Assembly: GCA_040877645.1 (NCBI GenBank)
Contig: JBBDNI010000007.1
Span: 1-36,481, forward strand
Direction of reading: 5' to 3'
Length of the DNA stretch: 36,481 bases
Source: Chloroflexota bacterium
GTDB lineage: Bacteria; Chloroflexota; Limnocylindria; QHBO01
Shown here piece after piece: positions 6,769-27,901 of the stretch. Under the pieces are notes generated by a model. It saw nothing but the letters and a program-made list of their open reading frames with translations. It was not told where the DNA came from and did not search any database. The position numbers and the translations under genes are program-made. Each line of letters opens with the position of its first letter. The stretch's first letter is position 1.

Positions 6769-6769
6769 C

Positions 6770-7555: not shown

Positions 7556-7716
7556 TGGTGGCCTCAGGGCGGCACAGGCGCGCATTGTACGGACTGGGGT
7601 CAGGGTGTCGTCCGAGGTATGGCTTGTGCCGGCATCGGTCCAGGGTTGCGGCCGATGCGCAGCCCACCGTAGGGTGGCACCGGCGCAAAACGGCGTCTGG
7701 TTTCAGCGGGAGTGGC

Positions 7717-10161: not shown

Positions 10162-10172
10162 GCCAGGAGTCG

Positions 10173-11171: not shown

Positions 11172-11314
11172 ACGACGCCCCGCCCAAGGGGTGGTGCAGG
11201 TCAGGCGAAGAAAGAGAGGTGCGATCCGAGAGGCGATCACGGCGGCCAGACTGACCGTCGAAGGGCGTGTGCGCCGATGCGCGATCATTGACAGCAATAC
11301 GGGAGGTGGATAGG

Positions 11315-12967
11315 GTGGCGACACAGGCGATCCCCGCCGCGGCTACGCCAGAGATCTTCGTTCGGAAGTCATCCGGCCTGGTCCGCGTGATGTCCCCATC
11401 GTCGGCGTTTGTGTACAACGTGCTGACGATGGGCCTGATCTTTCCCTGGACCTATCTCTGGGCGCCGGGAGCGCTGCCCGGAGGACGGTTGGTCGAGGGG
11501 ATCCTCCTGGCGATGATCTTGGAGATTCCGATCGCCCTCTCCTACGTCTGGCTCTCAACCGCCTTCCCCCGAACCGGCGGTGACTACGTCTTCCAGAGCC
11601 GTGTCTTCGGGGGCGGTCTGGCTTTCACGGTCGTCTTCTCGGGCTTCGTGATCTGGATCCTGCAGTGGGTGGCCCTCTCTGGTTGGCTGCTCGCAACGCT
11701 CGGCTTCGCACCGCTCTTCCTGGGGCTTGGCGCCTCGCTAAAGAACGCGGGCATGGTCGACGTGGCGGCCTGGTTCACGACGCCGACGGGGATCATCGTG
11801 ACGAGCATCGCCAATGCCGGGATCGCCCTGGTGATCCTGGCCTCCGGGTTCCGCAACTACGTCCGCGTTCAGCGGGTGATGTGGATCGCCATCCTCCTTT
11901 CGTTTGGGACGATGCTCTTCGTCTTGGCAACCACCAGCCCGGGTGTGGTGCCAGGGCGGCTCGACGCCTTCTCGGCGGCGATCGGGGGGTCGTCATCCTT
12001 CACGGCCGATGCGATCAGCGCGGCGCAGGGTGCCGGCATCGATCTCAACCCGCCGTTCAGCCTGCTCGCGACGCTCCTGATCGCGCCGATCGCGTGGACG
12101 TCGCTGCAGTGGGCTACCTATTCGAGCCAGCAGAATGGCGAGATCAAGTCGGCGGGCTCATTCCGGAACCAGGCGTTCATCATCGTTGGTGCGCTGGTGT
12201 TGACCGGCCTGCTTCTGGCACTGCTGGCCTTCGTGCTCGAAGGCGCTGTGGGGTCCCAGTTCCTCTATGTCGCCGGCTCCGGGTACTGGAGCGGCGTCTC
12301 CGAGGCGTCGTTGGCAGGTTCCTACCTGTGGCCGAACATCCTGGCGACAGCGATCGCGTTCAACCCGCTCGTCACCCTGCTGATCGCTGCCGGGTTCATC
12401 CTCAACGGGCACCAGATCGTCCACAACTGCTACATCGGCATGACGCGGGTGATGGTCGCCATGTCGTTCGATCGGCTGCTCCCCGAGTGGGTCAGCCGCG
12501 TGAGTGATCGGTTCCACACGCCCGTGAATGCCCACGTCGTGTACTTCGTCGCAAGCATTCCGGTGATCTGGCTGTACAACAGCTTCTCGTATGGCGACTC
12601 GACCTGGACGTCGTTGACCCTCGGCGTGACGTTCGCGTGCGGATACGTGTTCGTGGCCACGGCACTCGCCGGGGCGTTGCTCCCGTACCGGGCCAAGGCG
12701 GCCTACGATGCGTCCCCGGGCGCGAAGTACACGCTCGGCGGCCTGCCGCTGGTGACGATCATCGGCCTGCTGGGGTCAGCAGCCGGCGTCGTCTTCCTGT
12801 ACCTGTTCATCACCAACGCCCAGCTGGGGCTGACCACGCAGCTCGCCAACACCGTCGTGGGCGGTGTCCTGCTCTTCTCCGCGGCCTGGTACCTGATCGC
12901 AAAGCAGGTCCGCCGCAGCCGCGGCATCGACGTCTCGTTCGCCTTCAAGGAGATCCCGCCCGAGTGA
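11315..12967 (+). CDS. APC-superfamily permease
   Basis: About 12 TM helices, with FPRTGGDYVFQSR typical of APC transporters. GTG 11315 is preceded by GGGAGG with an 8-nt spacer; the tracked ORF starts at GTG 11267. Confidence 0.85.
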   Translation: MATQAIPAAATPEIFVRKSSGLVRVMSPSSAFVYNVLTMGLIFPWTYLWAPGALPGGRLVEGILLAMILEIPIALSYVWLSTAFPRTGGDYVFQSRVFGGGLAFTVVFSGFVIWILQWVALSGWLLATLGFAPLFLGLGASLKNAGMVDVAAWFTTPTGIIVTSIANAGIALVILASGFRNYVRVQRVMWIAILLSFGTMLFVLATTSPGVVPGRLDAFSAAIGGSSSFTADAISAAQGAGIDLNPPFSLLATLLIAPIAWTSLQWATYSSQQNGEIKSAGSFRNQAFIIVGALVLTGLLLALLAFVLEGAVGSQFLYVAGSGYWSGVSEASLAGSYLWPNILATAIAFNPLVTLLIAAGFILNGHQIVHNCYIGMTRVMVAMSFDRLLPEWVSRVSDRFHTPVNAHVVYFVASIPVIWLYNSFSYGDSTWTSLTLGVTFACGYVFVATALAGALLPYRAKAAYDASPGAKYTLGGLPLVTIIGLLGSAAGVVFLYLFITNAQLGLTTQLANTVVGGVLLFSAAWYLIAKQVRRSRGIDVSFAFKEIPPE

Positions 12968-13011
12968 TCGTTGGTCGTCAGCTCCATGCAAAGCCCGGCC
13001 CCCCCCCCGGC

Positions 13012-13914
13012 TCACGTCCGCACGTCGCGCAGCCAGCGCGCGAGCTCGTCCGAGTCGAGGCCGGCGGCCGCGCGGGCCCAGCGCTCCTCGGCCCAAGCAT
13101 GGAAGTCGAAGTCGATCGTCGAGATCCGCGCCTGGATCGCTGCCCAGAGCGTCCACCCCACGTCGGACATGATCATGTTCAGGTGCATCCTCGCCAGCAG
13201 AGCCGGGGACGCCTCGCCGAAATAGGCCGCGCACAACGACCCGACCCGCGCGTCATCCCAGCCCAGCTCCTGGCACGTATTGCCGAGTTCGAAGGTTGGA
13301 TCGCCGTTGCCGCTGTACTCGTAGTCGACGATCCGCAGATCCGTGCCGTTGTCGAGGTAGTTCTCAGCCAGCAGGTCGTTATGGCAGGGCACTACCGGCA
13401 GGGGCCTGGCGCGCAGAGCGCCCTCGAGCTCCGGCAGCTGCTCGAGACGCTCCCGGTAGCCCGCCGGGATGGGGATCCTGCGCGCCTCCACGGCGCGCAC
13501 GTATCGCTCCGTCAAGCGGAACATGTTGAAGTCGTGGAGGAAGCGTGGACCGGCGTGGAGCCGCCGCAGGGACGCGGCCACGCGCGCGGCCATGCCACTC
13601 TCGGCAAACGTCTCGTTCGTCATCGCACGCCCGCCGATCCATTCAAGCACGATCACGCCGTGCTGGGGCAGCGCGTGGACGACGCGGGCGCCGATCCCCG
13701 TCTCCGCCGCGGCTCGGGTGTTGTGCAATTCGTTCGTTCGGTCGATCGCGAGGATGCTCGTGTCGGCGCCGGGGACGCGGACGAACATCCGCTCGCCGTC
13801 GACCGTGACCGCGTAGTTCATATTGGTCAAACCAGCGAGTACCGGCTCAATCTCGACGGTCCGCCCACGCCAGGCGTCGATCGCATGCACCACTTGCTCG
13901 ATCCCAATCGCCAT
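13012..13914 (-). CDS. choline/ethanolamine-kinase-like phosphotransferase, paralogue 2
   Basis: CHNDLLAENY and IVDYEYSGNGDPTFELGN. ATG 13914 is preceded by GGAAGGAGGG with a 4-nt spacer; the tracked ORF extends 20 codons further, to 13974. Confidence 0.85.
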   Translation of the reverse strand: MAIGIEQVVHAIDAWRGRTVEIEPVLAGLTNMNYAVTVDGERMFVRVPGADTSILAIDRTNELHNTRAAAETGIGARVVHALPQHGVIVLEWIGGRAMTNETFAESGMAARVAASLRRLHAGPRFLHDFNMFRLTERYVRAVEARRIPIPAGYRERLEQLPELEGALRARPLPVVPCHNDLLAENYLDNGTDLRIVDYEYSGNGDPTFELGNTCQELGWDDARVGSLCAAYFGEASPALLARMHLNMIMSDVGWTLWAAIQARISTIDFDFHAWAEERWARAAAGLDSDELARWLRDVRT

Positions 13915-13994
13915 CCGGCCCTCCTTCCGCCCGGTCGGGCATCGCACGCTTCGGGCTGGGAAGCGCCTCCTCAAGCAGATCGGCGGACGCGGTA

Positions 13995-14125: not shown

Positions 14126-15598
14126 CTAGCCCATGTCCGTGGAATCGGCCCGAGCGTCCTCCCGGATATTCTCCGTCGGTCGAGCGATGAGCAGATAGGC
14201 AAGGCCCAGCAGAAACACCACCCCGGCGCTGATCGGGACGAGCCACCGATCGACGAAGGATTCGAGGCCCTCGCCTGTCTTGAACGACAGGATCACGATG
14301 GCCGATACGCCGTACACCAAGCCGACCACGTTGACCGGCCAGCCCCAGCCACCGAGGTTGAACGACCCGCTCGGCCGCCAGCCACGCGCTCGAGCGATGA
14401 TCGAGGCCAGGACCACGCTCTGGAAGCCGATGTAGATGCCGACAACGGCGAAGGTGATGATGATCGTCACCGTGGCCGACGGCAGGAGGGTGATCAGGGA
14501 GGGGACGATCACGGCCACCAGCACCGCCCCGGGGGGCATGTGCCAGCGCGGGTGCACGCTCGACAGGGCCCGTGATCCGACCACCATCCCGTCGCGCGCG
14601 AACGAGTAGACGAGGCGGATCGCCGCACCCTGGATGGCGATCGTGCAGGAGACGAAGGCAAACAGGATCAGCGCCAGCGCGATCGTGGTTCCGGCATCGC
14701 CGAAGTTCGCCAGCAGGATCGAATCGATGGGCGACGCATCGGCACCGCTCATGACGGCCCCGATGTCCGGCACGGCCAGGATCAGGGCGATCGCCAGGAA
14801 GAACGAGGTCGCGCCGCCGACGGCCAGCGTCAGCTGCATGGCGCGCGGCACCTTGCGTGATGGGTCGTGGACCTCCTCGGCGATGTCGCCGCACGCTTCG
14901 AAGCCGTAGAAGATCCAGACGCTGAAGAGCGCGGCGGCCAGGAAGGCGCCGAGGTAGTCCCCGCCCCCGGCCCCCATGGTGTCGAAGATGACGCCGAAAT
15001 CCTGGTTGCGATCGAAGAGCAGCAGGTAGGCGCCCAGTCCCAGGGTGCCCGCAATCTCGACGACCAGGCCGGCGCGCGCAAGGAGCGCGAGGCGACGAAT
15101 GCCGAGCATGTTCAGGATGCCGCCGAGGACGATGACGGCCACGGCCACAAGCACCGTGCTCAGCGGCGTGTTCTCCCAGCCGAACAGCGGCGCCGCGAAC
15201 AGGTTGGCCGCGTAGGCCACTGCTGCAACAGTGATGAGCAATGCCACCGTGTACATCCAACCCGACATGAACGCGTAGCGCGGGCCTACCAGGCGCTTCG
15301 ACCATTGGTAGATGCCGCCCGCGAGCGGGAACTGCGATGCAATCTCAGAGAAGGTGAAGACGACCATGAACTGGCCGAAGACCACGATGGGCACCGACCA
15401 GATGAACGCCGGACCGCCGGTGGCCAGTCCGAAGGCAAACAGGGAGTAGACCCCCACCACCGGGGACAGGTAGGTGAACCCCACCGCAAAGTTCGATAAG
15501 AGCCCAATGGATCGGCTCAGTTGCTGGCGATAACCCAGGCTCGCGAGCTGACGTTCGTCAGCCCCGACCTCGGCGACGGCCGGTGACGCGGATGCCAT
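14126..15598 (-). CDS. APC-superfamily permease, amino acid/choline transporter (ACT)-like
   Basis: ATG 15598 is preceded by GGAGGAGAG with a 6-nt spacer. N-terminus LGYRQQLSRSIGLLSNFAVGFTYLS and FPLAGGIYQW. It forms the C-terminal 491 aa of the artefactual 702-aa tracked ORF. Confidence 0.9.
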   Translation of the reverse strand: MASASPAVAEVGADERQLASLGYRQQLSRSIGLLSNFAVGFTYLSPVVGVYSLFAFGLATGGPAFIWSVPIVVFGQFMVVFTFSEIASQFPLAGGIYQWSKRLVGPRYAFMSGWMYTVALLITVAAVAYAANLFAAPLFGWENTPLSTVLVAVAVIVLGGILNMLGIRRLALLARAGLVVEIAGTLGLGAYLLLFDRNQDFGVIFDTMGAGGGDYLGAFLAAALFSVWIFYGFEACGDIAEEVHDPSRKVPRAMQLTLAVGGATSFFLAIALILAVPDIGAVMSGADASPIDSILLANFGDAGTTIALALILFAFVSCTIAIQGAAIRLVYSFARDGMVVGSRALSSVHPRWHMPPGAVLVAVIVPSLITLLPSATVTIIITFAVVGIYIGFQSVVLASIIARARGWRPSGSFNLGGWGWPVNVVGLVYGVSAIVILSFKTGEGLESFVDRWLVPISAGVVFLLGLAYLLIARPTENIREDARADSTDMG

Positions 15599-15690
15599 GA
15601 GAGTCTCTCCTCCGAATCTGCTGGAGATTCCTGGTCCGCACGGATCGGGCATGCAGCACTTTGGGCGACCGATCGGCCGGGCTGGGCGGC

Positions 15691-15720
15691 AGCATAGGAG
15701 CGCCCCACATGACCCGTCAA
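15691..15720 (-). promoter_or_regulatory. candidate promoter TTGACG-18 nt-TATGCT for the permease/kinase transcription unit
   Basis: Minus strand: -35 TTGACG (15720..15715, overlapping the Nudix stop codon), -10 TATGCT (15696..15691), about 90 nt upstream of ATG 15598. Confidence 0.35.
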
Positions 15721-16234
15721 CGACTTTTTTCGTGGCCCTCCGGCGACGGCCCGATCCGGTAGAGGTGCGCGTGCTCGGGGCGCTCGAGCAGGTCGGCCGA
15801 CATCCGCTGCAGCGCCGCGCGCTGGGGCTCGTATGGGACAAGGCGCACCGCCTCTGCGAGCGACCCCCATCGCCACTCGTCGTGCTCCTCTGAGAGCTGC
15901 GGCACGGCATCCGCCGCCACCCGAGCGGCAACGGCACGATCGCTTCGACCGTGCCGCGCTTCCACGCGTACAAGTCGAAGACGGCATTCACCGTGTAAAG
16001 CTCGATGGCTTCCAGCCCCGTCTCCTCGCGCAGTTCGCGCTGCGCGGCGAGATGCGGAGCCTCGCCCGCCTCGATCCAGCCGGAGACGCCCTGCCAGAAG
16101 GGTGACCCATCGCGACCGGACCGATGCAGCAGCAGGAACTCGGACCTGCCGTCGAGCACGCGATATGGCCACACATCCACACCGGTCACCCGGTGCGCGG
16201 GCCAGCCCTCGGCCCGCGTCTTCGAATCGGTCAC
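15717..16234 (-). pseudogene. NudB-like Nudix hydrolase (dihydroneopterin-triphosphate pyrophosphatase-like) interrupted by a 1-nt frameshift
   Basis: The N-terminal part, with a complete Nudix box GWIEAGEAPHLAAQRELREETGL, is in the frame of GTG 16234. The C-terminal part (AVAARVAADAVPQLSEEHDEWRWGSLAEAVRLVPYEPQRAALQRM, stop 15717) is in the -1 frame. The switch lies around 15925..15950. Confidence 0.7.
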
Positions 16235-16271: not shown

Positions 16272-17021
16272 ATGAGCGATCGACCGCGGATCGTGGTCAC
16301 GCTGCACGGCCCTGAGCAGGCCGCGCGCGAGGAGCCGACCTGGGCCTCGTTCGACGGCTACCTCGACGCGGTGCGACGAGCGGGCGGAGATCCGGTTGCT
16401 CTCGATCCGACGGCGACCCAGGGTGAGCGCGCGGCGGCGCTGGCCACCATGGACGGCCTCCTCCTGCCGGGTGGCGCCGACCTTGACCCGGCCCTCTACG
16501 GGGAGGAGCCCCATCCGGCGGTGGCCGTGGAGGGAGCGCGCGACGACCTGGAGCTGGCGGCCTGGTCGGCCGCTCGAGCGCGCGGCGTCCCCATCTTCGG
16601 CGTGTGCCGCGGCTTCCAGGCGATCAACGTCTTCTCCGGTGGAACGCTGGTTCAGCACCTGGAGGGCCACGACAGCCCCACCCAAGCACCGAAGGCACAT
16701 CTGCTCCACCTCGACCCGGCCTCGCGGCTGGCGGCGATCCTGGGAGAGGCGGACCCCCTGCTTGGCACCGAGGTGAACAGCTACCACCACCAGGCGGTGC
16801 GGCCCGCCGACCTGGCTCCGGGGCTGGTGGCCTCCGGCATTGCGCCGCATGACGACGGTGAGCTGGTGGAGGCGCTCGAGGCGGCCGACGCCGCTGACTG
16901 GCTGCTGGGGGTCCAGTTCCACCCGGAGCGGCCCGAGTTCATCGGTCCCGAGTTCGCCCGCCTGTGGCGCGCCTTCGTCGACGCCGCGCGGGTCAGGTCA
17001 GGTCGACGAAGACGTTCTTGA
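16272..17021 (+). CDS. class-I glutamine amidotransferase-like gamma-glutamyl amide hydrolase (PuuD / peptidase C26-like)
   Basis: Catalytic-triad context GVCRGFQAINVF, YHHQAV, GVQFHPE. ATG 16272 (MSDRPRIVVTLHG); upstream codons of the tracked ORF overlap the Nudix gene. The 3' end overlaps the convergent ALDH gene by 29 nt. Confidence 0.85.
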   Translation: MSDRPRIVVTLHGPEQAAREEPTWASFDGYLDAVRRAGGDPVALDPTATQGERAAALATMDGLLLPGGADLDPALYGEEPHPAVAVEGARDDLELAAWSAARARGVPIFGVCRGFQAINVFSGGTLVQHLEGHDSPTQAPKAHLLHLDPASRLAAILGEADPLLGTEVNSYHHQAVRPADLAPGLVASGIAPHDDGELVEALEAADAADWLLGVQFHPERPEFIGPEFARLWRAFVDAARVRSGRRRRS

Positions 17022-18465
17022 TCTCGGTGTACAGGTCCAGCGCGTGCATCCCCAGCTCCCGCCCCATGCCACTCATCTTGTAGCCGCCGAACGGCGCCTC
17101 GGTATGGACGCTGCTGTTGGTGTTGACCGACAGGACCCCCGCCTTCACCGCCTTGGCCACCCGCAGCGCCTTGCCGATGTCGCGGCTCCAGATCGAGCCG
17201 GAGAGCCCGTACGGCGTGTCGTTGGCCTGGCGGATCGCATCGGCCTCGTCGGTGAAGGGGATGATCGCCACCACCGGGCCGAAGATCTCCTCGCGGACGA
17301 TGCGCATGTCGGTGCGGCAGCCATCGAAGATGGTTGGCATCAGGTAGGCGCCGGCGTCGAATGGGTCGCCGCTCGGCGCCTCGCCGCCGTACACCAGCTC
17401 TGCCCCCTCTTCCCGTCCGATCCCGATGTAGTCGATCACCCGCTCGCGCTGCCGCTGGCTGACCAGGCTGCCCATCTCGGTCTTGTCGTTCGCCGGATCG
17501 CCGACCACGACCTTGCGCGTCGCCTCGGTGAAGAGCTCGACCACCTCGTCGTGGACCGAGTCCTGCACGAAGATTCGGCTCCGGGCGCAGCAGTCCTGGC
17601 CGGCGTTGTCGAAGACCGCGTACGGCGACTCGGCCGCGAAGCGCTCGAGGTCCGCATCGGCGAAGACGATGTTCGGGCTCTTCCCGCCCAGCTCGAGGCT
17701 CACCTTCTTCACGTTGCCGGCGGCCAGCCGCATGATCTCTTGACCGGTCGTCGTCTCGCCGGTGAAGGCCACCTTGCCGACGCCTGCGTGCCCTGCCAGC
17801 GCCGCGCCGGCCGTGCCGCCCGGTCCGGTAATGACGTTCACCACGCCGGGCGGGAAGCCGGCCTCCAGGGCCAGCTCGCCGAGGCGAATCGCGGTCAGCG
17901 GCGTGTAGCTTGCCGGCTTGAGGACGGCCGTGTTGCCGGCCGCCAGGGCGGGGCCGAGCTTCCAGCTGGCCATGTTCATCGGGAAGTTCCACGGCACGAT
18001 CAGCCCGACCACGCCGATCGGCTCGCGGAGCGTGAAATCGAGCCCCGGTTTGGAGACGGGGATCGTTTCGCCGAAGACCTTGTTGGCGGCGCCGGCGTAG
18101 TACTCGAAGACGAGGCTCACCGCCAGTGCCTCGCCGCGGGCGCCGGAGATCGGCTTGCCGACGTTGCGGCTCTCCAGCTGGGCGAGCTCCTCGAGGTTCT
18201 GCTTGATCAGGTTCGAGTATTTCTGCAGCGTACGTCCGCGCTTGGCCGCCGACCAGGTCGACCACGGGCCCTCGCACGCGGCCTGTGCAGCGGCAACGGC
18301 GCGGTCGACGTCTTCCTTGCCGCCGAGCGGGGCGCGGGCCAGCAGCTCGCCAGTGGCCGGGTTGATCACGTCGAAGGTCTGGCCGTCGGCGGCGTCCACC
18401 TGCTCGCCACCGATGATCATCTTCACGTTGCTGACGGCAGGCTGCGCGCTGGTCTCGGTGGTCAT
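16993..18465 (-). CDS. NAD(P)-dependent aldehyde dehydrogenase (betaine-/gamma-glutamyl-aminoaldehyde dehydrogenase-like)
   Basis: [26 protein letters not shown], full length 490 aa. ATG 18465 lies 9 nt after the upstream gene's stop. Confidence 0.95.
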
Positions 18466-18474
18466 GGCGTGATT

Positions 18475-19866
18475 CTAGGGTGCCGGCTCGCCGGTCACAT
18501 ACAGCGGGATGAGCGTCCGCAGGATTGCGGTCGGGATCGGTTCAGTTGTGAACAGGCCGGGATGCCCGGGGGTGCGCGCGGCGAGGAAGGAGCGGTACCA
18601 CTCGGTCTCCCTGAGGTCCAGGCTATAGCGAGCTCCGTGGTCGCTGAAGAGCACGACCACTGCCTCCGGATCACGGTCCACGATCTCGTCGACCATCGCC
18701 AGCAGCTTTTGGTTCAGCGTGGCGAGGTCGCCCTCCATCGCGGCCGAATACTCGGCGAGGGTCATCCCCATCGTCTCGATCTGGGCGGCGAAGATGTTCA
18801 CCCCCGGCCAGTAGGAGGGAATGGGCATCGGGTCACCGTCGGCGTCCCACAGGAATGGCGTATGCGGCTGGAACAGGTGCGCCAGGACGAGCCGATGGGC
18901 GTCGGGGTCGACCAGCGAGACGAGGCTCTCCACGCTCCCCTCGAAGTGGGCGCGGAGCGAATCGGTCAGCAGGCTTGGCAGCAGCGCTTTGACGATCGGT
19001 CCCGCGAGCGACTCCGCCAGCATGTTGTCCTCGAACGTGTTGACGCCACCGTGCTGGATGTGCGTTCCGGCGGAGAAGGTGACGTGGCCCGCCGGCGAAT
19101 CGATGACGTCCCACTCGTAGCCGGCCGCCTGGGCCTGGCGCGGCAGCTCGGCATCGGAGAGCGCCTGACGCACCTGCCATTGGATCTCGCTGGCGGGGGC
19201 GGTGTCGTCAGGCACCCCATCGGTGCTGCCGGTGAGGAGCGTCATCAGCGTCAGGTCCGTGTAGCGCCGATCGGTATGGGCGTCGTCGTACACGTCGAAG
19301 CCCCGCTCAGCCAGCGCCTCCTCGAACGGGGCATTGTCGATCCCCATGTCGTTCAGCAGCGTGTCGCTGCGGGGGTAGCCGTCGAGCAGCACGATGTAGA
19401 TGTTCGGACCCGTGGCGGCCTGCGTGGCGGTCACGGGCGCAACGGCGCCCTCGGCGATCAGGAACGCACGGACCACCCCCGACACGAAGAAGACGAGCAC
19501 GAAGGCAACCGTTGCTGTCGATGCTGAGCGCGGCACGAGGGGCATGGGTCGGACGAAACGCCTGACCACTACCACGAGCACCACCCAGGCGACGGCCGCG
19601 GCGAGGGCCTCAGGCCAATGTCGCGTGAAGGTCGCCCAGAAGCAGATCAGGCCGGCTGCCGCGCCGGCTGCCAGCGGAGCGTGCGACCGCGCGAGCCAGG
19701 CTGCCGCGAGACCGATCAGCAGGGCGAGCGGGATGATGAGCAGGAGAGGGCGGTAGAGGTAGAAGGTGGGAAACGCAGAGTTCGCGAACCTGCCCAGGAT
19801 GTACCCCGCAATGGCCAGGTAGGCGACCCCGACAGCCAGGAGCGCTCGTCGCCAGCCTTCGGTCAC
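18475..19866 (-). CDS. membrane-anchored alkaline-phosphatase-superfamily (sulfatase / LTA-synthase / phosphoethanolamine-transferase-like) protein
   Basis: About 4-5 N-terminal TM helices, then a soluble domain with IYIVLLDGYPR and VVVLFSDHGARY motifs. GTG 19866 is the first start after an in-frame TAG. Confidence 0.75.
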   Translation of the reverse strand: MTEGWRRALLAVGVAYLAIAGYILGRFANSAFPTFYLYRPLLLIIPLALLIGLAAAWLARSHAPLAAGAAAGLICFWATFTRHWPEALAAAVAWVVLVVVVRRFVRPMPLVPRSASTATVAFVLVFFVSGVVRAFLIAEGAVAPVTATQAATGPNIYIVLLDGYPRSDTLLNDMGIDNAPFEEALAERGFDVYDDAHTDRRYTDLTLMTLLTGSTDGVPDDTAPASEIQWQVRQALSDAELPRQAQAAGYEWDVIDSPAGHVTFSAGTHIQHGGVNTFEDNMLAESLAGPIVKALLPSLLTDSLRAHFEGSVESLVSLVDPDAHRLVLAHLFQPHTPFLWDADGDPMPIPSYWPGVNIFAAQIETMGMTLAEYSAAMEGDLATLNQKLLAMVDEIVDRDPEAVVVLFSDHGARYSLDLRETEWYRSFLAARTPGHPGLFTTEPIPTAILRTLIPLYVTGEPAP

Positions 19867-19917
19867 CGAGCGATGCTAGAGCCTCACGGCCATTCCGTGC
19901 GCGCTCGCGCGATTCCC

Positions 19918-20688
19918 TCAGGCGCAGGCGATCGGTGGGTCGCTGCGCGGCCACAGCTCGACGCGGTCGGGACCCACCACGTAGACGGCCCGGCCGTCAG
20001 GCACGAACCACAGCTCGAGGTCGCCGCTCCGATAGCCGCTCGCCGTCGCGTCGTCGGGGAGCGCCGCATCGCCGTTGTACGGCTCGTGCAGCGTGCCGCG
20101 CGGCATGATGCCCAGCGGGTCACCGATGTACTGGCGCACCTCGGGTCTGTCAGCAATGTGCAGCAGGCGGGCCTGCTGCCAGCCGCAGTGCTCGGCACCG
20201 GGAAAGTCGCGCAGGATCAGCCCGGCGTCATCGGTCCATACCCGGTCGCCGGTGGCGAAGACAGCAGTGGCCCCGAACTCGGCCCCGGGGCAGGCGCGCA
20301 GCTCGTCGAGCGTGAAGACGCCCTCGCCGGGGATCGTGTGGGCCGTCGAGAAGACGGCCACCACCTTGATCCTGTCCGCGTTGCGATACACGAAGGTGGC
20401 GCGATCGGCGGCCACCGCGAACGGCTCCCAGTTGTTGATCGGCACCACGAAGGCGGGAGCCTTGAGCCAGCTGGCGAGCGCCGCCGCCGGCGAGTCACCG
20501 AGGCTGACGATTCCGAACGGACCGATGCCGCCCATCTCCGACGGAGCGCCATCGCAGTCGAGCAGGTCGAGCGGCGCGGGGATCAGGCTCGCCTCGGAGC
20601 TCGCGTCCTGGCTCGGCGACTGATCGACCGCTGCGCAGGCGCTGACCACGAGCAGGCAAGCCAGCATGAGGGGTCGGGGTGGACGCAT
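19918..20688 (-). CDS. putative lipoprotein of unknown function
   Basis: Signal peptide with lipobox: MRPPRPLMLACLLVVSAC-AAV. Good GC3 bias. Lies 20 nt downstream of the SDR gene. No family recognised. Confidence 0.7.
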   Translation of the reverse strand: MRPPRPLMLACLLVVSACAAVDQSPSQDASSEASLIPAPLDLLDCDGAPSEMGGIGPFGIVSLGDSPAAALASWLKAPAFVVPINNWEPFAVAADRATFVYRNADRIKVVAVFSTAHTIPGEGVFTLDELRACPGAEFGATAVFATGDRVWTDDAGLILRDFPGAEHCGWQQARLLHIADRPEVRQYIGDPLGIMPRGTLHEPYNGDAALPDDATASGYRSGDLELWFVPDGRAVYVVGPDRVELWPRSDPPIACA

Positions 20689-20708
20689 ATGCGCCAGACG
20701 CCGTGATC

Positions 20709-21476
20709 CTAGAAGTAGTTCACGCTGATGCCGCCGTCAATCACGAAGTGCGCGCCGTTGGTCCAACGTGACTCGTCCGAGGCGAGGTAGAGCGCCGCGT
20801 TGACGATCTCCTCAGGTTTGCCGAAGCGCCCGGTCGGGTTCCGCGCGAGGCGGAGCTGTTTGGCCGCCTCGTCCTTCAGCAGCCAGTCCATCAGCAGGGG
20901 AGTCTCGATCGGTCCGGGGCAGATGGCGTTGCTGCGCACGCCGCGCGGCCCGAACTGGACCGCCAGCGAGCGGGTCAGCGACAGGACAGCGCCTTTCGAC
21001 GCGGTGTAGGCGTCCTGCGGCACGGAGCAGCCGAGCAGCGCGACGAACGAGCTGATGTTGATGACCGATCCGGAACCCTGGTCGAGCATGCGCGGGATGG
21101 CGTACTTGCAGCCCAGGAAGACGCCGCGCACGTTGACCGCCATCACCTTGTCCCAGGTGGCGACATCGGTGTCGATCACGGAATGGTCCGGCTCCGGCAT
21201 CACGCCGGCGTTGTTGTAGAGCACATCGACCCGGCCGTAGGTCGCCACCGCGTGGTCGACCATGCCCTTCGCATCGGCCTCCTGGCTGACGTCGGTGCGC
21301 ACGAAGGTCGCCTCGCCACCGGCCGTCGTCACGAGGTCGACCGTCTCGCCCCCGGCCCTCTCGTCGAATTCGGCGACCACCACCTTGGCGCCCTCGGCGG
21401 CGAACATCTGGGCCGCCACGCGGCCCATGCCGCTGCCGGCCCCCGTGATGATCGCGACCTTGCCCTCAAGTCTCAT
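20709..21476 (-). CDS. classical short-chain dehydrogenase/reductase (SDR)
   Basis: ITGAGSGMGR, NNAG, YTASKGAV. Its ATG overlaps the stop of the upstream gene (TGATG). Confidence 0.95.
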   Translation of the reverse strand: MRLEGKVAIITGAGSGMGRVAAQMFAAEGAKVVVAEFDERAGGETVDLVTTAGGEATFVRTDVSQEADAKGMVDHAVATYGRVDVLYNNAGVMPEPDHSVIDTDVATWDKVMAVNVRGVFLGCKYAIPRMLDQGSGSVINISSFVALLGCSVPQDAYTASKGAVLSLTRSLAVQFGPRGVRSNAICPGPIETPLLMDWLLKDEAAKQLRLARNPTGRFGKPEEIVNAALYLASDESRWTNGAHFVIDGGISVNYF

Positions 21477-22861
21477 CAGCCTCGCTCCAGGTATCGCTCG
21501 CGGTCCCAGGTATGGACGATGGCGTCGTACGTCTCCTGCTCGACGCGAGCCGCGTTGAGGTAATGCGCCACCACATTGGCGCCGAAGATGTCGGCCGCGG
21601 CCACGCTCGTCTCCAGCTCGCGGATCGCCTCGTGCAGCGCCCGCGGCATGCGGTCGCAGCCGGTCGCCACGTAGCCGTTGCCGACGTACTCGGCCGGCGG
21701 CTCGATCTCGCGCTCGATCCCCAGCAGCCCCGCCCCCACCACGGCGGCATAGGCGAGGTAGGAGTTCATGTCACCGCCCGGGAAGCGATTCTCGATGTGC
21801 AGCCCCGCCCCGTCGCCCACGATCCGGAAGCCGGTCGTCCGATTGTCCCGGCCCCAGACCACGTTGACCGGGGCCCACGACGCAACCGCGTAGCGCTTGT
21901 ACGAGTTCACGTTCCCGGCCCAGAAGACCGCCAGCTCGCGGGCATAGGCCATCATGCCGCCCAGGAAGTGCCCCATCGTCGTCGACATTCCGTAGGGCTC
22001 GGCCTTGGGATCGAACATGAGCGCCTTCCTGCCGGCCTTGTCCCACAGCGACATATGCAGGTGGCCGCTCGAGCCGGTCCACGTGTGATCCGGCTTGGCC
22101 ATGAAGGTCAGCCCGAACCCGTTGAGCCAGGCGATCTCCTTTGCGCCGTGCTTGAAGATGACCGATTGGTCGGCCATGTCCAGCACATCGGTGTAGTGGA
22201 TGTTCACCTCGTGCTGCCCGGGAGCGGCCTCGCCCTTGCTGAACTCGACCGGGATTCCGGCCTCGGTCATCAGGTTGCGCAGCCGGCCGTGGATCGGCTC
22301 GCCCTTGGTGGCCTGCAGGAGGTGGTAGTCCTCGTTGTAGTAGCCGAAGCGCTCGAGACCGACGTAGCCCTTCTTCCAGGCCTGCTCGTATGTATCGGTC
22401 AGCAGGTAGTACTCGAACTCCGAGCCGGCCATCACCCGGAAGCCCATCTTGGTTGCCTTCTCGACCACCCGCTTGAGCATCGTCCGCGGCGAGATGGCGA
22501 TCTCGTGGCCGTGGTGGTCGACCGTGTCGGACAGGACCAGGGCCGTCTTGTCGAGCCACGGGACGACGCGCACGGTGTCCCACAGAGGATCCGCGATCCA
22601 GTCGCCATAGCCGGTCTCCCAGTTCATCAGCTGGAAGCCGTCGGGCGTGTTCATCTCCATGTCCGTTCCGAGCAGGTAGGTGCAGAAGTGCGCCCCGTGG
22701 TCGATGGCGCCGTTCAGGAAGGCCTGCCCCTGGACCCGCTTGCCCATCAGCCGGCCCTGCATGTCGGTGAGCGCCACGATGAGCGTATCGATCTCTCCCG
22801 CGCGCACCTTCGTCTTCAGCTCGGCGAGCTTGGGGTGATCCTTGCGCAGGTCCTTGGCCAT
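21476..22861 (-). CDS. glutamine-synthetase-family gamma-glutamyl-amine ligase (PuuA / GlnA3-GlnA4-like)
   Basis: GS catalytic-domain motifs KGEAAPGQHEVN, GSSGHLHMSLW, NSYKRY. Start ATG 22861 (MAKDLRKDHPKLAEL); the 24 upstream tracked codons are Arg-rich. Confidence 0.9.
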   Translation of the reverse strand: MAKDLRKDHPKLAELKTKVRAGEIDTLIVALTDMQGRLMGKRVQGQAFLNGAIDHGAHFCTYLLGTDMEMNTPDGFQLMNWETGYGDWIADPLWDTVRVVPWLDKTALVLSDTVDHHGHEIAISPRTMLKRVVEKATKMGFRVMAGSEFEYYLLTDTYEQAWKKGYVGLERFGYYNEDYHLLQATKGEPIHGRLRNLMTEAGIPVEFSKGEAAPGQHEVNIHYTDVLDMADQSVIFKHGAKEIAWLNGFGLTFMAKPDHTWTGSSGHLHMSLWDKAGRKALMFDPKAEPYGMSTTMGHFLGGMMAYARELAVFWAGNVNSYKRYAVASWAPVNVVWGRDNRTTGFRIVGDGAGLHIENRFPGGDMNSYLAYAAVVGAGLLGIEREIEPPAEYVGNGYVATGCDRMPRALHEAIRELETSVAAADIFGANVVAHYLNAARVEQETYDAIVHTWDRERYLERG

Positions 22862-22893
22862 GTTCCGTTCTCGCCTTTCGTTGTTTACAGACC

Positions 22894-22926
22894 GATGAGC
22901 CGGCCGGGATGCCCGACCGGCCCATC
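22894..22926. other. intercistronic imperfect palindrome/stem-loop between permease and GS-like gene
   Basis: GATGAGCCGGCCGGG-atg-CCCGACCGGCCCATC: 13 of 15 positions pair, with a 3-nt loop. No U-tract follows. Confidence 0.5.
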
Positions 22927-22945
22927 GTTGCAATCTACAGGTTGG

Positions 22946-24640
22946 TTAGCCCGAGAACTTGGCGGCCTCCGAGTCGAACTCACGCTCGATCTCGGTCAGC
23001 TCCTCCTCGCGGCCCATGGCGTGCGGCCCCTTGAAGTTCCGTCGCGCCCACCCGAAGTAGTAGACGACCAGGAACAGGACGATGATCACCATGAACGGCC
23101 AGGAGATGTTGCCCGAGGTCGGGAACGAGAAGAGGATCATCAGCGCCACGATCCAGAGCAGCGCGACCACGGCGATTGGCCTCGACCACCTGCCTAGGCT
23201 CCACACCCGCTCGCTCTTCCACGCGTCGGTGGTCATGCCCAGGTAGATCGGGACGGCATAGGCGGCGTACAGGAAGATCGTGCTCACCGCGGTGACGATG
23301 ACCACCGCGATGCCACGGCCGACCCAGAATGCCAGGAAGGTCAGGATGAACGCGCCCACGACCATGCCAATGAGGGCATTCGCGGGCGTCCGATACCGAT
23401 GCGAGACCTTCTTCAGCCAGCCGGAGCCGGGCATTCCATCGTCCCGGCTGAAGGCGTACAGCATGCGGCCTGCCGACGCGACCGAGGAAAGGCCGCAGAA
23501 GCACATCGCCAACGCGATGCCGCCACCAAGGACCCCCGCCAGGCCGGCGTCGAGGTTCTCTCCCAGGATGAAGAGCACCGCTGCCCCGTCCCCAAAGTAG
23601 TACTGGCTGAAGGTAGCCGAGTCATCCAGCTGCCCGAAGAGCGGGCTGAGGTCCGGCAGGTGCGTGCCAAGCGCCAGCAAGAAGATGTAGCCGACCACTG
23701 CCGAGACCGCCACCGACAGGAAGATGCCCCACGCGCTCGACTTGCGGGCGCCGACGGTCTCCTCGGCGACGTGCGCCGACGCGTCGTAGCCGGTGTAGGT
23801 CCAGTTCGCCTGGAGCAGCGAAAACAGGAAGGCGAAGACGATCGGGTAGGCCACCGCCGGCCCGTACTTGAAGCTGAACAATGGGTTATCACTCCCGACC
23901 GGGAACGTGTTGTCCCACGAGCCGAGGGTGTCGAGTGGCTGGATCGCGAACAGGTCGAGCCCTGCATCGGCACCGGTTGACTTGGTGCCAAGGATGAAGA
24001 GCGAGCCGACGATCACCGCCACGAAGAAGATGTGCCACCACACGCTCACCTGGTTGAGGAGGGCGACCACCCGGATGCCGGCGATATTGAGCGCCAGTTC
24101 GATGGCAAGCAGCCCCGCCATGGTTACCAGCGCCCCGTTGAGGGCCGGTCCCTCGGCGCCGAACGCCGGATCGCCGAAGAAGATGGTGGTGTTCGAATAG
24201 GCACCGCCCGTGAGCGGCGTCAGGATGCTGGCATTCACGAACAGGGCGGCGGCGTAGTTGATGCCGGCAACGATCGCGAACTGGCCGATCAGGTTCAGCC
24301 ACGCGGTCCACCAGCCCCAGTTCTTGTTCTTCATCCTGCTGGCCCAGTAGTACAGGCCGCCCGCGGTGGGATAGGCAGATGCGACCTCGGCCATTGAGGC
24401 CGCAATGGCCAGCACGAAGACGGTGACCAGCGGCCAACCGATCAGGCTCGCCGCGGTCCCGGACCAGGCAAGTCCGTAGTCGTACAGGATGACCGCGCCG
24501 GTCAGGATCGAGATGATCGAGAAGCTGATCGCGAAGTTAGAGAAGCCGCCCATGCTGCGCAGCAGCTCCTGGGCGTAGCCGAGGCCGTGCAGGTCGCGAA
24601 CGTCCTGCCGGATGACCTCCTCGCGGGATGGTTGCGTCAT
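22946..24640 (-). CDS. APC-superfamily permease, amino acid/choline transporter (ACT)-like; first gene of the six-gene operon
   Basis: ATG 24640 is preceded by AGGAGGAGAGG with a 6-nt spacer. LGYAQELLRSMGGFSNFAISFSIIS and YPTAGGLYYW. About 12-14 TM helices. Confidence 0.9.
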   Translation of the reverse strand: MTQPSREEVIRQDVRDLHGLGYAQELLRSMGGFSNFAISFSIISILTGAVILYDYGLAWSGTAASLIGWPLVTVFVLAIAASMAEVASAYPTAGGLYYWASRMKNKNWGWWTAWLNLIGQFAIVAGINYAAALFVNASILTPLTGGAYSNTTIFFGDPAFGAEGPALNGALVTMAGLLAIELALNIAGIRVVALLNQVSVWWHIFFVAVIVGSLFILGTKSTGADAGLDLFAIQPLDTLGSWDNTFPVGSDNPLFSFKYGPAVAYPIVFAFLFSLLQANWTYTGYDASAHVAEETVGARKSSAWGIFLSVAVSAVVGYIFLLALGTHLPDLSPLFGQLDDSATFSQYYFGDGAAVLFILGENLDAGLAGVLGGGIALAMCFCGLSSVASAGRMLYAFSRDDGMPGSGWLKKVSHRYRTPANALIGMVVGAFILTFLAFWVGRGIAVVIVTAVSTIFLYAAYAVPIYLGMTTDAWKSERVWSLGRWSRPIAVVALLWIVALMILFSFPTSGNISWPFMVIIVLFLVVYYFGWARRNFKGPHAMGREEELTEIEREFDSEAAKFSG

Positions 24641-24787
24641 GTGGAACCTCTCCTCCTTGGACGAGATCGCGGGCGTGCAGGGCACGCGCTGCGCGGGCGA
24701 AGGTCAGGTCATGCGCGTGGCGAAGGACGGGCGTGAGTGGCTACGCCTCCTTCCTGATGCGGCTCGACGGGCGAGCCGCCACCCGCG

Positions 24788-24816
24788 ACTATAGCCACGC
24801 CGCGGGCCATCGGGAA
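24788..24816 (-). promoter_or_regulatory. candidate promoter TTCCCG-17 nt-TATAGT upstream of the permease operon
   Basis: Minus strand: -10 TATAGT (24793..24788) and a weak -35 TTCCCG (24816..24811). This would give a leader of about 140 nt. Confidence 0.3.
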
Positions 24817-24835
24817 GGGGCGATTTTCAAGCGAA

Positions 24836-24855
24836 GGCCGCCCGTCGAGGCGGCC
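24836..24855 (-). terminator. possible intrinsic terminator of the L25 gene
   Basis: Minus strand: GGCCGCC-tcgacg-GGCGGCC followed by TTCGCTTGAAAAT, 31 nt after the L25 stop. The U-tract is weak. Confidence 0.4.
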
Positions 24856-24886
24856 CTCGGTGGTGCGGGTGGGGAGGCGCGAGCGG

Positions 24887-25555: not shown

Positions 25556-25716
25556 GGTCGCGGCTGATCCTCGAAGCGGAGCGCCAGGGCGTGGCCGGGC
25601 GTCGGTGGTGGCACGCAGGTGCGGGCCGCGATGGTAGCAGCGCACCGGAGCAGCGGCAAGGCGGCCATCAGGCCTTCGGGGGCTTGCGGCGCCATCGGTC
25701 TAGAATCAGCGGCCGA

Positions 25717-26412
25717 ATGGCCGGCACGATCATGATCGTCGAGGATGAGCCCGCGGTGGCGCGCGGTGTCCAGGTCGCGCTCGAGCGCGAGGGCTACGCC
25801 ACCGCCATCGTCGGGACCGGCGAGGAGGCTTTGAAGCGGTTCGCCGACATCGCCCCGGACCTGGTGCTGCTGGACGTTCGCCTGCCGGGGATCGATGGCT
25901 TCGAGGTCTTACGCCAGCTCCGGCGCGAGACACGGGCCCCCGTCCTCTTCCTGACCGCCAGGGCCGACGAGGTGGACAAGGTGGTCGGTCTCGAGATCGG
26001 CGCCGATGACTACCTCGTCAAGCCGTTCAGCGTCCGCGAGCTGGTCAGCCGCATCAAGGCCCTGCTGCGGCGCGCATACGGTGAGCTGGCCGACACGCAG
26101 ACCGGCAGGACCCTGCGCCGCGGTGAGCTGGTGATCGACCTCGAGCGCCGGCGCGTCACGCGTGACGGGCAACGGATCAGCCTGACGACCACCGAGTTCG
26201 ACCTGCTGCGCCACATGGCCACCAAGCCAGGTCGCGTCTACACCAGGACGCAGCTGCTCGAGCTGGTGCGCGATTACGAGGCGCTGGAGGCGGACGAGCG
26301 GACCATCAACGTGCACATCAGCCACATCCGCGACAAGATCGAGCCGGACCCCGCCCAACCCCGATTCATCAAGACGGTGAGGGGCGTGGGGTATGCGTTC
26401 AGCGAGGACTGA
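25717..26412 (+). CDS. OmpR/PhoB-family response regulator
   Basis: Receiver domain IMIVEDEP ... LLDVRLPGIDG ... KPF, plus a C-terminal winged-helix domain (TVRGVGYAF). ATG 25717. Confidence 0.9.
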   Translation: MAGTIMIVEDEPAVARGVQVALEREGYATAIVGTGEEALKRFADIAPDLVLLDVRLPGIDGFEVLRQLRRETRAPVLFLTARADEVDKVVGLEIGADDYLVKPFSVRELVSRIKALLRRAYGELADTQTGRTLRRGELVIDLERRRVTRDGQRISLTTTEFDLLRHMATKPGRVYTRTQLLELVRDYEALEADERTINVHISHIRDKIEPDPAQPRFIKTVRGVGYAFSED

Positions 26413-27901
26413 CACTCCATCCCAACCGATGATCGGGCGCGTCCGGCGCCAGCTGGGCTGGTTCCAGCAGCTGAACGCGCGGCTGGTGCTCGCCTTGGCC
26501 AGCGTGGCGCTGGTGGCCCTGCTCGTCTCGGGCGTCGCCGTCAACCAGATCCTGCCCGGCTACTTTGTCGAGCAGGCGACGAGTCAGGCTCGGACCGCGG
26601 CGCTGGCAACTGCGCTGCTCCTGGAGGGCGAAGCGGACAAAGTGAGGGGATCCCAGCCGGGCTTGCTGACCGTTCGCGAGCTGCGCGAGACGGAGTTCCT
26701 GAGCGCCGTGGCGGAGACGGCCGCGACCGAGCTCGCCCAGGGGACGGTCGCCTTCTACAACCCGGATGGATCCCTCGCGGCACGCGCCGAGCCCGATGCC
26801 GAAACGGCGGCGCAGCTCCGCGCCGAGGGACTTCGTCCCGATCCCGAGGTGCCTCCCCAGAGCGTTTCGCAGGGGATCAGCATGCCCGACGGCTCTCCCC
26901 GCATCAGGTTCACCATCACCGTCTCGGCGCCGTATACCTCGCGCGAGACGAGCCTGGAGCGGGTGCGCGGGACGCTCCTCTTCACCGGCCTGCTGGCCCT
27001 GCTCGCTTCGGTGGTGGTCGGGATTCCGGCGGCGCGCCGCTTCACCAGTCCGCTCGCCCGGCTGCGTCGCGCAGCGAGCCGATTGGCGCAGGGCCAGCTC
27101 GACGAGCGGGCCCCACGCTCGGACATCGTGGAGATCGACGACCTGGCCCAGCAGTTCAACGTGATGGCCGACCGGCTCTCAGAATCGCTGCGCATGCTCG
27201 AGGCCGATCGGGATCGGCTCCGTGAGTTCGTAGCCGATGTCTCGCATGAGCTTCGCACCCCGATCGCCGCCCTGCGCACCTTCACCGAGCTGCAACGCGA
27301 CGGGAAGGTTGACGAAGCCACGCGCCGCGAATTCCTGGACCGATCTGGCGAGCAGATCAGCCGCCTGGAGTGGATGAGCACCAACCTGCTCGACCTGTCG
27401 CGCATCGACGCCGGGATCTTCCCGCTCGACGTGCGGAGCGGCGACCTGCGCGACCCGATCCGCTCCGTGGTCGAAGCGCACGCCGAGCTGGCCGAGCAGC
27501 GCGGCGTGTCGCTGCTGAGCGAGGTCCCGCCTACTCCGGTGATGCTGCTCTTCGACCGGGAGCGGATCGTGCAGCTGCTGACAAACCTGGTCGGCAATGG
27601 GCTGAAGTTCACGCCGCGCGGCGGCGAGGTGCGGGTTCTCCTGACCGATGCGCCCGAGGGCGCCACGCTCGAGGTCCGCGACTCCGGGCCGGGCATCTTG
27701 GCGGCGGAGCTGCCCCACGTCTTCGAACGCTTCTTCCGCGGCACCAACGTGGGGGACGCCCGCGCGTCGGGGAGCGGGCTGGGGCTGGCGATCGCCCGCT
27801 CGATCGTGGAGATGCACAACGGCCGGATCGAGGTGGCCAGCGCGCCGGGACAGGGGTCGACCTTCATCGTGCGGCTACCGCGCGCCGAGCAAGGTCAATG
27901 A
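26393..27901 (+). CDS. sensor histidine kinase (two TM segments, HAMP, HisKA, HATPase)
   Basis: H-box SHELRTPIAAL; G-boxes DSGPGI and GSGLGLAI. ATG 26393 overlaps the regulator gene by 20 nt; the alternative ATG is 26429. Confidence 0.9.
   Translation: MRSARTDTPSQPMIGRVRRQLGWFQQLNARLVLALASVALVALLVSGVAVNQILPGYFVEQATSQARTAALATALLLEGEADKVRGSQPGLLTVRELRETEFLSAVAETAATELAQGTVAFYNPDGSLAARAEPDAETAAQLRAEGLRPDPEVPPQSVSQGISMPDGSPRIRFTITVSAPYTSRETSLERVRGTLLFTGLLALLASVVVGIPAARRFTSPLARLRRAASRLAQGQLDERAPRSDIVEIDDLAQQFNVMADRLSESLRMLEADRDRLREFVADVSHELRTPIAALRTFTELQRDGKVDEATRREFLDRSGEQISRLEWMSTNLLDLSRIDAGIFPLDVRSGDLRDPIRSVVEAHAELAEQRGVSLLSEVPPTPVMLLFDRERIVQLLTNLVGNGLKFTPRGGEVRVLLTDAPEGATLEVRDSGPGILAAELPHVFERFFRGTNVGDARASGSGLGLAIARSIVEMHNGRIEVASAPGQGSTFIVRLPRAEQGQ

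Follow-up and report, generated by a model that had tools for sequence, protein, structure and literature searches.

Which amine is processed by a gene cluster of an uncultured Chloroflexota bacterium in which a glutamine synthetase (GS)-like ligase gene stands between a permease gene and dehydrogenase genes, and do all genes of this cluster belong to one pathway? These questions are raised by positions 16272-24640 of contig JBBDNI010000007.1 (assembly GCA_040877645.1), which was analysed over its whole length of 36,481 nucleotides and is referred to here as the window. The genome belongs to the Limnocylindria, a class of abundant, uncultured, small-genome Chloroflexota of soil and freshwater. 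The window, with a G+C content of about 69%, is contig C7 of a 75-contig, 1.08-Mb assembly with an estimated completeness of 72.6%, and the nearest relatives of its genes are found in metagenome-assembled Candidatus Limnocylindria or Chloroflexota genomes. A first-pass annotation of this DNA had proposed a six-gene gamma-glutamylation operon with a convergent amidase gene as a candidate route from ethanolamine to glycine without eut genes. Judged by gene content and homology, the locus probably encodes the ethanolamine glutamylation route in its actinobacterial 'GlnA4' form. The pathway itself was described between 2015 and 2023 in Streptomyces and proteobacteria, so that it cannot be counted as a new route.

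Genes were called from six-frame open reading frames (ORFs) and third-position G+C, which yielded the seven genes of positions 16272-24640, and domains were assigned with Pfam and NCBIfam. All genes, strands and coordinates of the first-pass annotation were matched by these calls, and the recomputed spacings and the convergent overlap were identical to those reported there. Five of the genes, all inside 8.4 kb, would make up the pathway. An APC-superfamily permease (22946-24640, minus strand; AA_permease_2, 1.3e-43), the gene of which is preceded by a strong ribosome binding site (RBS) with the Shine-Dalgarno sequence AAGGAGGAGAGG, would import ethanolamine, and the GS-like ligase (21476-22861, minus strand; Gln-synt_C, 1.4e-90) would join it to the gamma-carboxyl group of glutamate using ATP. 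A short-chain dehydrogenase/reductase (SDR; 20709-21476, minus strand; adh_short_C2, 2e-67) would then oxidise the alcohol group of gamma-glutamylethanolamide, giving the aldehyde gamma-glutamyl-aminoacetaldehyde, an aldehyde dehydrogenase (ALDH; 16993-18465, minus strand; Aldedh, 7e-173) would convert this aldehyde to gamma-glutamylglycine, and a convergently encoded C26 amidase (16272-17021, plus strand; Peptidase_C26, 1.9e-46) would release glycine and regenerate glutamate. Glycine would enter the glycine-cleavage system and has an outlet because GcvP is encoded in the genome to which the window belongs; neither B12 nor a microcompartment would be required. Each of these steps, as well as the substrate, is predicted from the observed gene content, gene order, homology and conservation. 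The replacement of the Puu oxidase by an SDR and the conversion of ethanolamine to glutamate and glycine, both already part of the first-pass annotation, agree with the route proposed for the GlnA4 and Eto systems, with which the ligase groups. On the minus strand, the permease and ligase genes are separated by 84 nt, the SDR start overlaps the ligase stop (-1 nt; TGATG), and the SDR gene is followed after 20 nt by a lipoprotein gene, after a further 51 nt by a gene for a membrane protein of the alkaline phosphatase (AP) superfamily and after another 9 nt by the ALDH gene, with which the amidase gene overlaps by 29 nt.

The ligase was compared with all sequences of the Protein Data Bank (PDB) by HMMER. 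The top matches were 11zs with 397 bits and 5dm3 with 373 bits, while the best true GS reached 167 bits and PA5508 46 bits. The GmaS entries 9qur (146 bits) and 7cql (126 bits) likewise stayed far under the two top matches, so that a GmaS-type ligase is not indicated, and neither mgs nor mgd genes were noticed among the genes of the window. With NCBIfam, the ligase scored far under the cut-offs for GlnA, type III GS and PuuA (172 bits with the GGputSyn model, cut-off 650); it is thus not a PuuA equivalog, and a stand-alone oxidase of the PuuB type is missing from the operon. Its identity amounts to 62% with the eat-linked enzyme of Thermomicrobium roseum, 45% with the Streptomyces enzyme and 45-47% with the enzymes of the Eto type from Aminobacter and Paracoccus denitrificans, compared to 31% with the GlnA of its own lineage and 28% with E. 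coli PuuA. In a maximum likelihood tree of 16 rows, the ligase was placed in a clade with a support of 92/94 together with the T. roseum enzyme, the Streptomyces GlnA4-type enzyme and the Aminobacter and P. denitrificans Eto-type enzymes, outside of which the GlnA of Limnocylindria as well as GlnA and PuuA of E. coli were found. No ethanolamine-pocket residues transferable to the window ligase were obtained from PMC9826267 or PMC13740247. From these comparisons, the ligase is predicted to be a gamma-glutamylethanolamide synthetase of the GlnA4 / Eto type.

For the permease, the nearest NCBIfam model was TIGR00907 (amino acid/choline-type), reached with 214 bits and thus under its cut-off; the protein is presumed to import ethanolamine or a related amino alcohol. 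The SDR shares 57% identity with the SDR encoded beside the T. roseum ligase and is a predicted gamma-glutamylethanolamide dehydrogenase that would convert the alcohol to the aldehyde. The ALDH remained under every NCBIfam equivalog cut-off (BADH 532 bits with a cut-off of 669; PuuC 428 with a cut-off of 850) and is 42% identical to E. coli PuuC and 33-37% identical to the ALDHs of proteobacterial Eto operons; it is predicted to be an NAD(P)-dependent gamma-glutamyl-aminoacetaldehyde dehydrogenase yielding gamma-glutamylglycine. In the amidase, which is of the Peptidase C26 / class-I amidotransferase type, the catalytic motifs GVCRGFQ (with the nucleophile) and QFHPE are intact. Its matches in the PDB were 3fij (6e-30), the P. 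aeruginosa protein 7d4r (2e-24) and E. coli PuuD 6vtv (5e-17), its identity to E. coli PuuD is 32%, and it is a predicted gamma-glutamylglycine amidase.

The same five-part set is known from Streptomyces. Growth of S. coelicolor on ethanolamine depends on GlnA4, and the subsequent SDR, ALDH and amidase reactions have been proposed from the neighbours of the glnA4 gene in the cluster SCO1610-SCO1615 (Krysenko et al. 2019, PMC6529630). As comparison copies, plasmid pKVP1 of S. viridifaciens was used for the GlnA4 cluster and P. denitrificans and Aminobacter were used for the Eto operon. The pKVP1 cluster consists of genes for an FCD regulator, a permease, a GS-like protein, a C26 hydrolase, an ALDH and an SDR, and the identities of the window proteins to their S. 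viridifaciens counterparts are 36% for the permease, 45% for the ligase, 48% for the SDR, 54% for the ALDH and 44% for the amidase; for the ALDH and the amidase, these values exceed those with E. coli PuuC and PuuD. Window and Streptomyces cluster thus share an APC permease, a GS-like ligase, an SDR, an ALDH and a C26/GATase-type hydrolase as well as the proposed chemistry; they differ in that the window has no GntR/FCD (EpuRI-type) regulator nearby, a different gene order, a convergent amidase gene, the lipoprotein and AP-like inserts, a conserved hairpin after the permease gene and a host in the Chloroflexota instead of the Actinomycetota. In T. roseum, a GS-like ligase gene is followed by an SDR gene and then by a gene for the 'eat' ethanolamine permease. 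The proteobacterial Eto operon encodes a homologous ligase of the same clade (45-47% identity) and the same four chemical steps, whereas the transporter is of the TRAP type, the alcohol dehydrogenase of the iron type and the amidase of the N-formylglutamate-amidohydrolase family and the regulator is RpiR, in place of the APC permease, SDR and C26 amidase of the window; accordingly, the gene content in P. denitrificans and Aminobacter reads RpiR, N-formylglutamate amidohydrolase, (TRAP), GS-like, ALDH and Fe-ADH. The Eto-type operon of Phaeobacter MED193, which is related to the C. salexigens (Csal_0678-type) and A. tumefaciens pathway, is induced on phosphatidylethanolamine, and its TRAP protein binds ethanolamine (PMC10132767). 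With the Puu pathway of E. coli (PuuP, PuuA, PuuB, PuuC and PuuD), the window shares gamma-glutamyl masking, oxidation to the acid and hydrolysis; in contrast, the SDR replaces the PuuB-type oxidase and PuuE is lacking.

The arrangement is maintained among relatives of the locus, with synteny kept over about 80 loci. An APC permease gene was found directly upstream of the ligase gene in 43 of 66 related loci, and of the 49 loci in which 9 kb or more of downstream sequence follow the ligase gene, 43 contained the SDR gene and 31 the ALDH gene. Because SDR, ALDH and permease recur across related loci and the five-part set recurs in Streptomyces, the arrangement exceeds what is expected by chance. 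For a census within the class, 101 sampled Limnocylindria genomes were searched, namely the window's own genome and 100 others, 83 of which were of high quality; since these genomes are related to one another, all counts are descriptive. The ligase is encoded in 35 of the 101 genomes and its distribution is patchy by genus. EutB (PF06751) was detected in none of the 101 Limnocylindria genomes, while the E. coli control was positive, so that the first-pass wording 'without eut genes' holds to the extent covered by this search. The choline-kinase-like gene that adjoins the operon was present in 26 genomes, every one of them ligase-positive (26/26). This nested co-occurrence, which supports the earlier suggestion of a link to the adjoining kinase and demethylase genes, fits kinase-demethylase modules feeding the pathway.

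A loss of the operon was observed as well. One congener, G003, with a completeness of 97%, has lost the operon and retains GlnA only. At its remnant locus (L096, G003:C2:556000-575000), the permease, ligase and SDR genes and most of the ALDH gene are gone; all that follows the L25 gene is an AP-like gene with an internal TGA, a 43-residue ALDH tail and then the amidase gene, which is intact.

Two other readings of the enzymes have to be weighed. It is highly improbable that the GS-like gene encodes a genuine glutamine synthetase, or a ligase for methylamine or polyamines, and that the dehydrogenases next to it are unrelated. Such a reading could draw on the fact that the gene is the sole PF00120 match in the 72.6%-complete assembly and on the weak similarity to the type III GS and PuuA models. 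Against it, a canonical GlnA (437-448 bits) is encoded separately beside this paralogue (302-316 bits) in four near-complete relatives, three congeners and one genome of the same family, so that the ligase is not the housekeeping GS and the case of a bona fide glutamine synthetase, by which the first-pass annotation would have fallen, is largely refuted. Moreover, the 31% identity to that GlnA stands against 45-62% to ethanolamine-type enzymes, the cut-offs for GlnA, PuuA and type III GS are far from reached, the GmaS structures score 126-146 bits compared to 373-397 bits, and the pairing of ligase and SDR is conserved across phyla. The same enzyme logic might also serve another amine, such as 3-aminopropanol or 4-aminobutanol, which would yield beta-alanine and GABA, or a choline-derived amine, with ethanolamine being a side substrate; we regard this as unlikely. 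It would account for the amino acid/choline type (TIGR00907) of the permease, which is not Eat, for the betaine-aldehyde and aminobutyraldehyde dehydrogenases being the best NCBIfam models of the ALDH (all under cut-off), for the richness of the island in choline-kinase-like and dimethylglycine dehydrogenase (DMGDH)-like genes and for the divergence of the permease among relatives (51-86% identity) compared to the ligase (84-92%). However, the ligase gene of the nearest cultured relative adjoins an 'eat' ethanolamine permease gene, the full gene set matches clusters that have been tied to ethanolamine experimentally, and the SDR and ALDH require a primary alcohol, the commonest amine of this kind being ethanolamine. 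An ethanolamine glutamylation route of the GlnA4 form is thus preferred for permease, ligase, SDR, ALDH and amidase.

Several observations nevertheless weigh against this assignment. The activities are predicted at 45-62% identity to enzymes of partly inferred function, and biochemistry is available only for the C. salexigens system and for GlnA4 of S. coelicolor. PDB entry 5dm3, the second best match of the ligase, is presumed to be the C. salexigens ethanolamine-pathway ligase Csal_0679. The placement of the ligase is partial because the tree was built without GlnA2, GlnA3, GmaS, IpuC and Pau enzymes. The permease does not belong to the Eat family (TIGR00908, 18.5 bits), and the amidase is not exclusive to the pathway, since a homologue at 1e-40 was present in 26 of the 35 ligase-positive genomes and absent from the other 9, and 14 of the 66 ligase-negative genomes had one as well. 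A regulator of the GntR/FCD or RpiR type, which would be an accessory and non-catalytic feature, was not found within the 36 kb of the window, where regulators are encoded only by a MarR gene (2275-2874) and a two-component pair (25591-27901). In many relatives, the operon is interrupted by unrelated genes, often on the opposite strand. Finally, the hairpin between the permease and ligase genes may be a leaky terminator without a U tract or a stabiliser of the 3′-end, in which case the six minus-strand genes need not share one transcript.

This hairpin (22895-22925, minus strand; core GGGCCGGUCGGG / CCCGGCCGGCUC) is located in the 84-nt spacer, 21 nt past the permease stop and 33 nt ahead of the ligase start, and is not followed by a U tract. 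Its presence, pointed out in the first-pass annotation, was substantiated by a 16-bp stem with a folding energy of -37.7 kcal/mol (z = -3.9 compared to shuffled sequences). That it might be a repeat scattered over the genome or a terminator motif of a generic kind was rejected because the core palindrome (22899-22921) occurs only once in the 1.08-Mb assembly. The hairpin is conserved in the loci L002-L027, L046, L054 and L055. In an alignment of 27 sequences of the closer clade, 96% of the cells are paired and five pairs show compensatory changes; within the inner pairs (2-14), one-sided changes are all G-U on the sense strand and never A-C, and cells without pairing are restricted to the two outermost pairs. 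The compensation and the restriction of G-U pairs to the sense strand point to selection acting on the operon-strand RNA. Furthermore, a GC hairpin of drifting sequence is kept in the same spacer of 23 more distant loci. No match was obtained with Rfam at the gathering threshold over the whole window. As an RNA element, the hairpin may serve as U-less terminator, attenuator or 3′-end stabiliser, and it probably determines how much permease is made relative to the enzymes. One sequencing run labelled as RNA-Seq, which probably contains DNA, yielded only 150-240-nt contigs of relatives with 90-95% identity and was uninformative on transcripts. Scans for promoter and terminator consensus sequences between 15.8 and 25.8 kb gave nothing exceeding chance.

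Upstream of the permease gene, the leader region (24641-24886, minus strand) contains a conserved TATAGT(C) box, preceded at a distance of 17 nt by TTCCCG, as well as a conserved GGAAGGAGG box about 100 nt before the real RBS. A consensus fold of this leader gave no supported structure, only conserved sequence blocks. With regard to the permease itself, the identity ranges from 51 to 86% across L002-L027, where the ligase is 84-92% identical, and the transporter in this slot appears to have been either exchanged or to have evolved much faster than the enzymes.

The two genes between the SDR and ALDH genes were the part of the 'six-gene gamma-glutamylation operon' that did not hold, as the permease, ligase, SDR and ALDH genes form the recurrent set and the lipoprotein and AP-like genes are variable inserts. 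By comparison with related loci, both are later, lineage-specific inserts, the products of which would face outwards. The lipoprotein (19918-20688, minus strand), which matches no Pfam or NCBIfam family, has the lipobox VSAC, four conserved Cys residues and an invariant HCGW motif, and its AF2 model (pLDDT 87.8) consists of two beta-rich domains. All of its 35 homologues are unnamed. In the PDB, no match to its fold was found (Foldseek E > 0.03; best VIA Z 5.3 over 77 residues), which does not imply a novel fold; only unnamed Actinomycetota clusters in the Atlas resemble it, with a TM of 0.67-0.70. Of 80 loci, L004 was the only one in which the lipoprotein gene accompanied the AP-like gene.

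The AP-like protein (18475-19866, minus strand; GTG start) was modelled by AF2 with a pLDDT of 85.7 and comprises five N-terminal helices (3-137) followed by an alpha/beta domain of the sulfatase fold. Its positive N-terminus and the five helices suggest that the catalytic domain should face outwards. With respect to sequence models, the Pfam Sulfatase match (PF00884) was sub-threshold with 20.4 bits (cut-off 25) and no NCBIfam model, LtaS/Ept models included, was matched; the CptA model was touched by one of 47 relatives with an E of 0.0015. In structure comparisons, VIA gave Z values of about 17-18 that were tied between sulfatases, choline sulfatase, LtaS, EptA/EptC/MCR-1 and PbgA, and the top Foldseek matches were EptC, MCR-1 and EptA. 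Five N-terminal helices, an outward sulfatase-fold domain, a Thr nucleophile and Asp/His metal ligands are shared with EptA/MCR-1 and LtaS, from which the protein differs in that identity is only about 12-16% and the Z values are tied with those of true sulfatases. The residues D162, T203, H330, D409 and H410 are invariant over 47 relatives down to 25% identity, with position 203 being Thr or Ser among close relatives; the invariance of these residues and the Thr/Ser nucleophile point to phosphoryl transfer of the LtaS/EptA kind rather than to a formylglycine sulfatase. The protein belongs to a large family, for which 5213 representatives were counted at E <= 0.001. Three tandem AP-like paralogues with about 30% identity to the operon copy fill the 5.2-kb contig C21 of the same genome (L109, G000:C21:1-5248). 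A complex prediction for the AP-like ectodomain and the lipoprotein gave a score of 0.00 and counts neither way.

The ligase|SDR and SDR|ALDH slots of relatives hold, for example, a giant GAF histidine kinase, a ROK protein, a TrkA channel and a luciferase-like oxidoreductase, and as unrelated and often opposite-strand genes occupy both slots, these positions accept insertions. In some relatives, a light-sensing cassette of heliorhodopsin, a START/NAD-binding fusion protein and a MerR-type B12-binding regulator lies between the ligase and SDR genes on the opposite strand (L008 11400-15275; L020 11378-15215; L026 6993-9673).

Given the unrelated cargo that relatives carry in these slots, a link of the two inserts to the pathway can only be tentative: they may feed it, for example by head-group release, or may be genes of the envelope that arrived at a position prone to insertion. 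It is possible, though doubtful, that the lipoprotein and the AP-like enzyme are parts of the pathway which would make ethanolamine or phosphoethanolamine available for uptake by releasing it, outside the cytoplasm, from the head groups of phospholipids or from decorated polymers of the envelope. Both inserts lie on the same strand with tight spacings of 20, 51 and 9 nt, AP-like orthologues (at least 57% identity) were found in 6 of the 101 genomes and always between the SDR and ALDH genes, and the fold with its Thr nucleophile resembles that of phosphoethanolamine transferases, as would be expected of such parts. In addition, the release of phospholipid head groups is coupled to the glutamylation pathway in Phaeobacter (PMC10132767), and the AP-like gene of G003 carries a stop codon where the operon is lost; the latter is, however, a single event of regional decay. 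On the other hand, the AP-like gene is absent from 29 of the 35 ligase-positive genomes, its slots carry heliorhodopsin, MerR-B12, kinase, ROK and TrkA genes in relatives, AP-like relatives at 41-49% identity are located in glycosyltransferase clusters, at least three more tandem paralogues exist elsewhere in the genome, and enzymes of the EptA/LtaS type transfer head groups and do not free the amine. A more extended scheme is rather unlikely, in which the AP-like enzyme and the lipoprotein would act as harvesters of phosphoethanolamine-bearing lipids or polymers outside the cell and, together with kinase, folate-dependent demethylase and phosphatase modules and with the hairpin as an RNA valve between uptake and catabolism, the island would form a complete B12-independent system converting the head groups ethanolamine, methylethanolamines and choline to glycine.

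In the surroundings of the operon, the region 3393-13974 contains two choline-kinase-like genes, two genes for FAD/GcvT demethylase-like proteins of 815-871 aa, a weak metallophosphoesterase-like gene and further APC permease genes. Divergent from the amidase gene, a gene at 14126-16234 (minus strand) encodes a protein of 702 aa in which a NUDIX hydrolase domain (residues ~26-84) is fused N-terminally to an APC permease; at this position, relatives encode an unfused APC permease with 32-38% identity.

A literature search found no paper linking Limnocylindria with ethanolamine. As the pathway has already been described, the value of the present analysis is one of annotation and ecology rather than of new concepts; particular to the window are the two inserts, the class-wide hairpin, the nesting of the kinase gene and the loss of the operon in a congener. 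The glutamylation route of ethanolamine use is extended to the Limnocylindria, where the genomes searched have no eut genes and about a third of them hold the operon, often beside kinase-demethylase modules. This provides a testable picture of how such oligotrophs draw nitrogen and carbon from lipid head groups.

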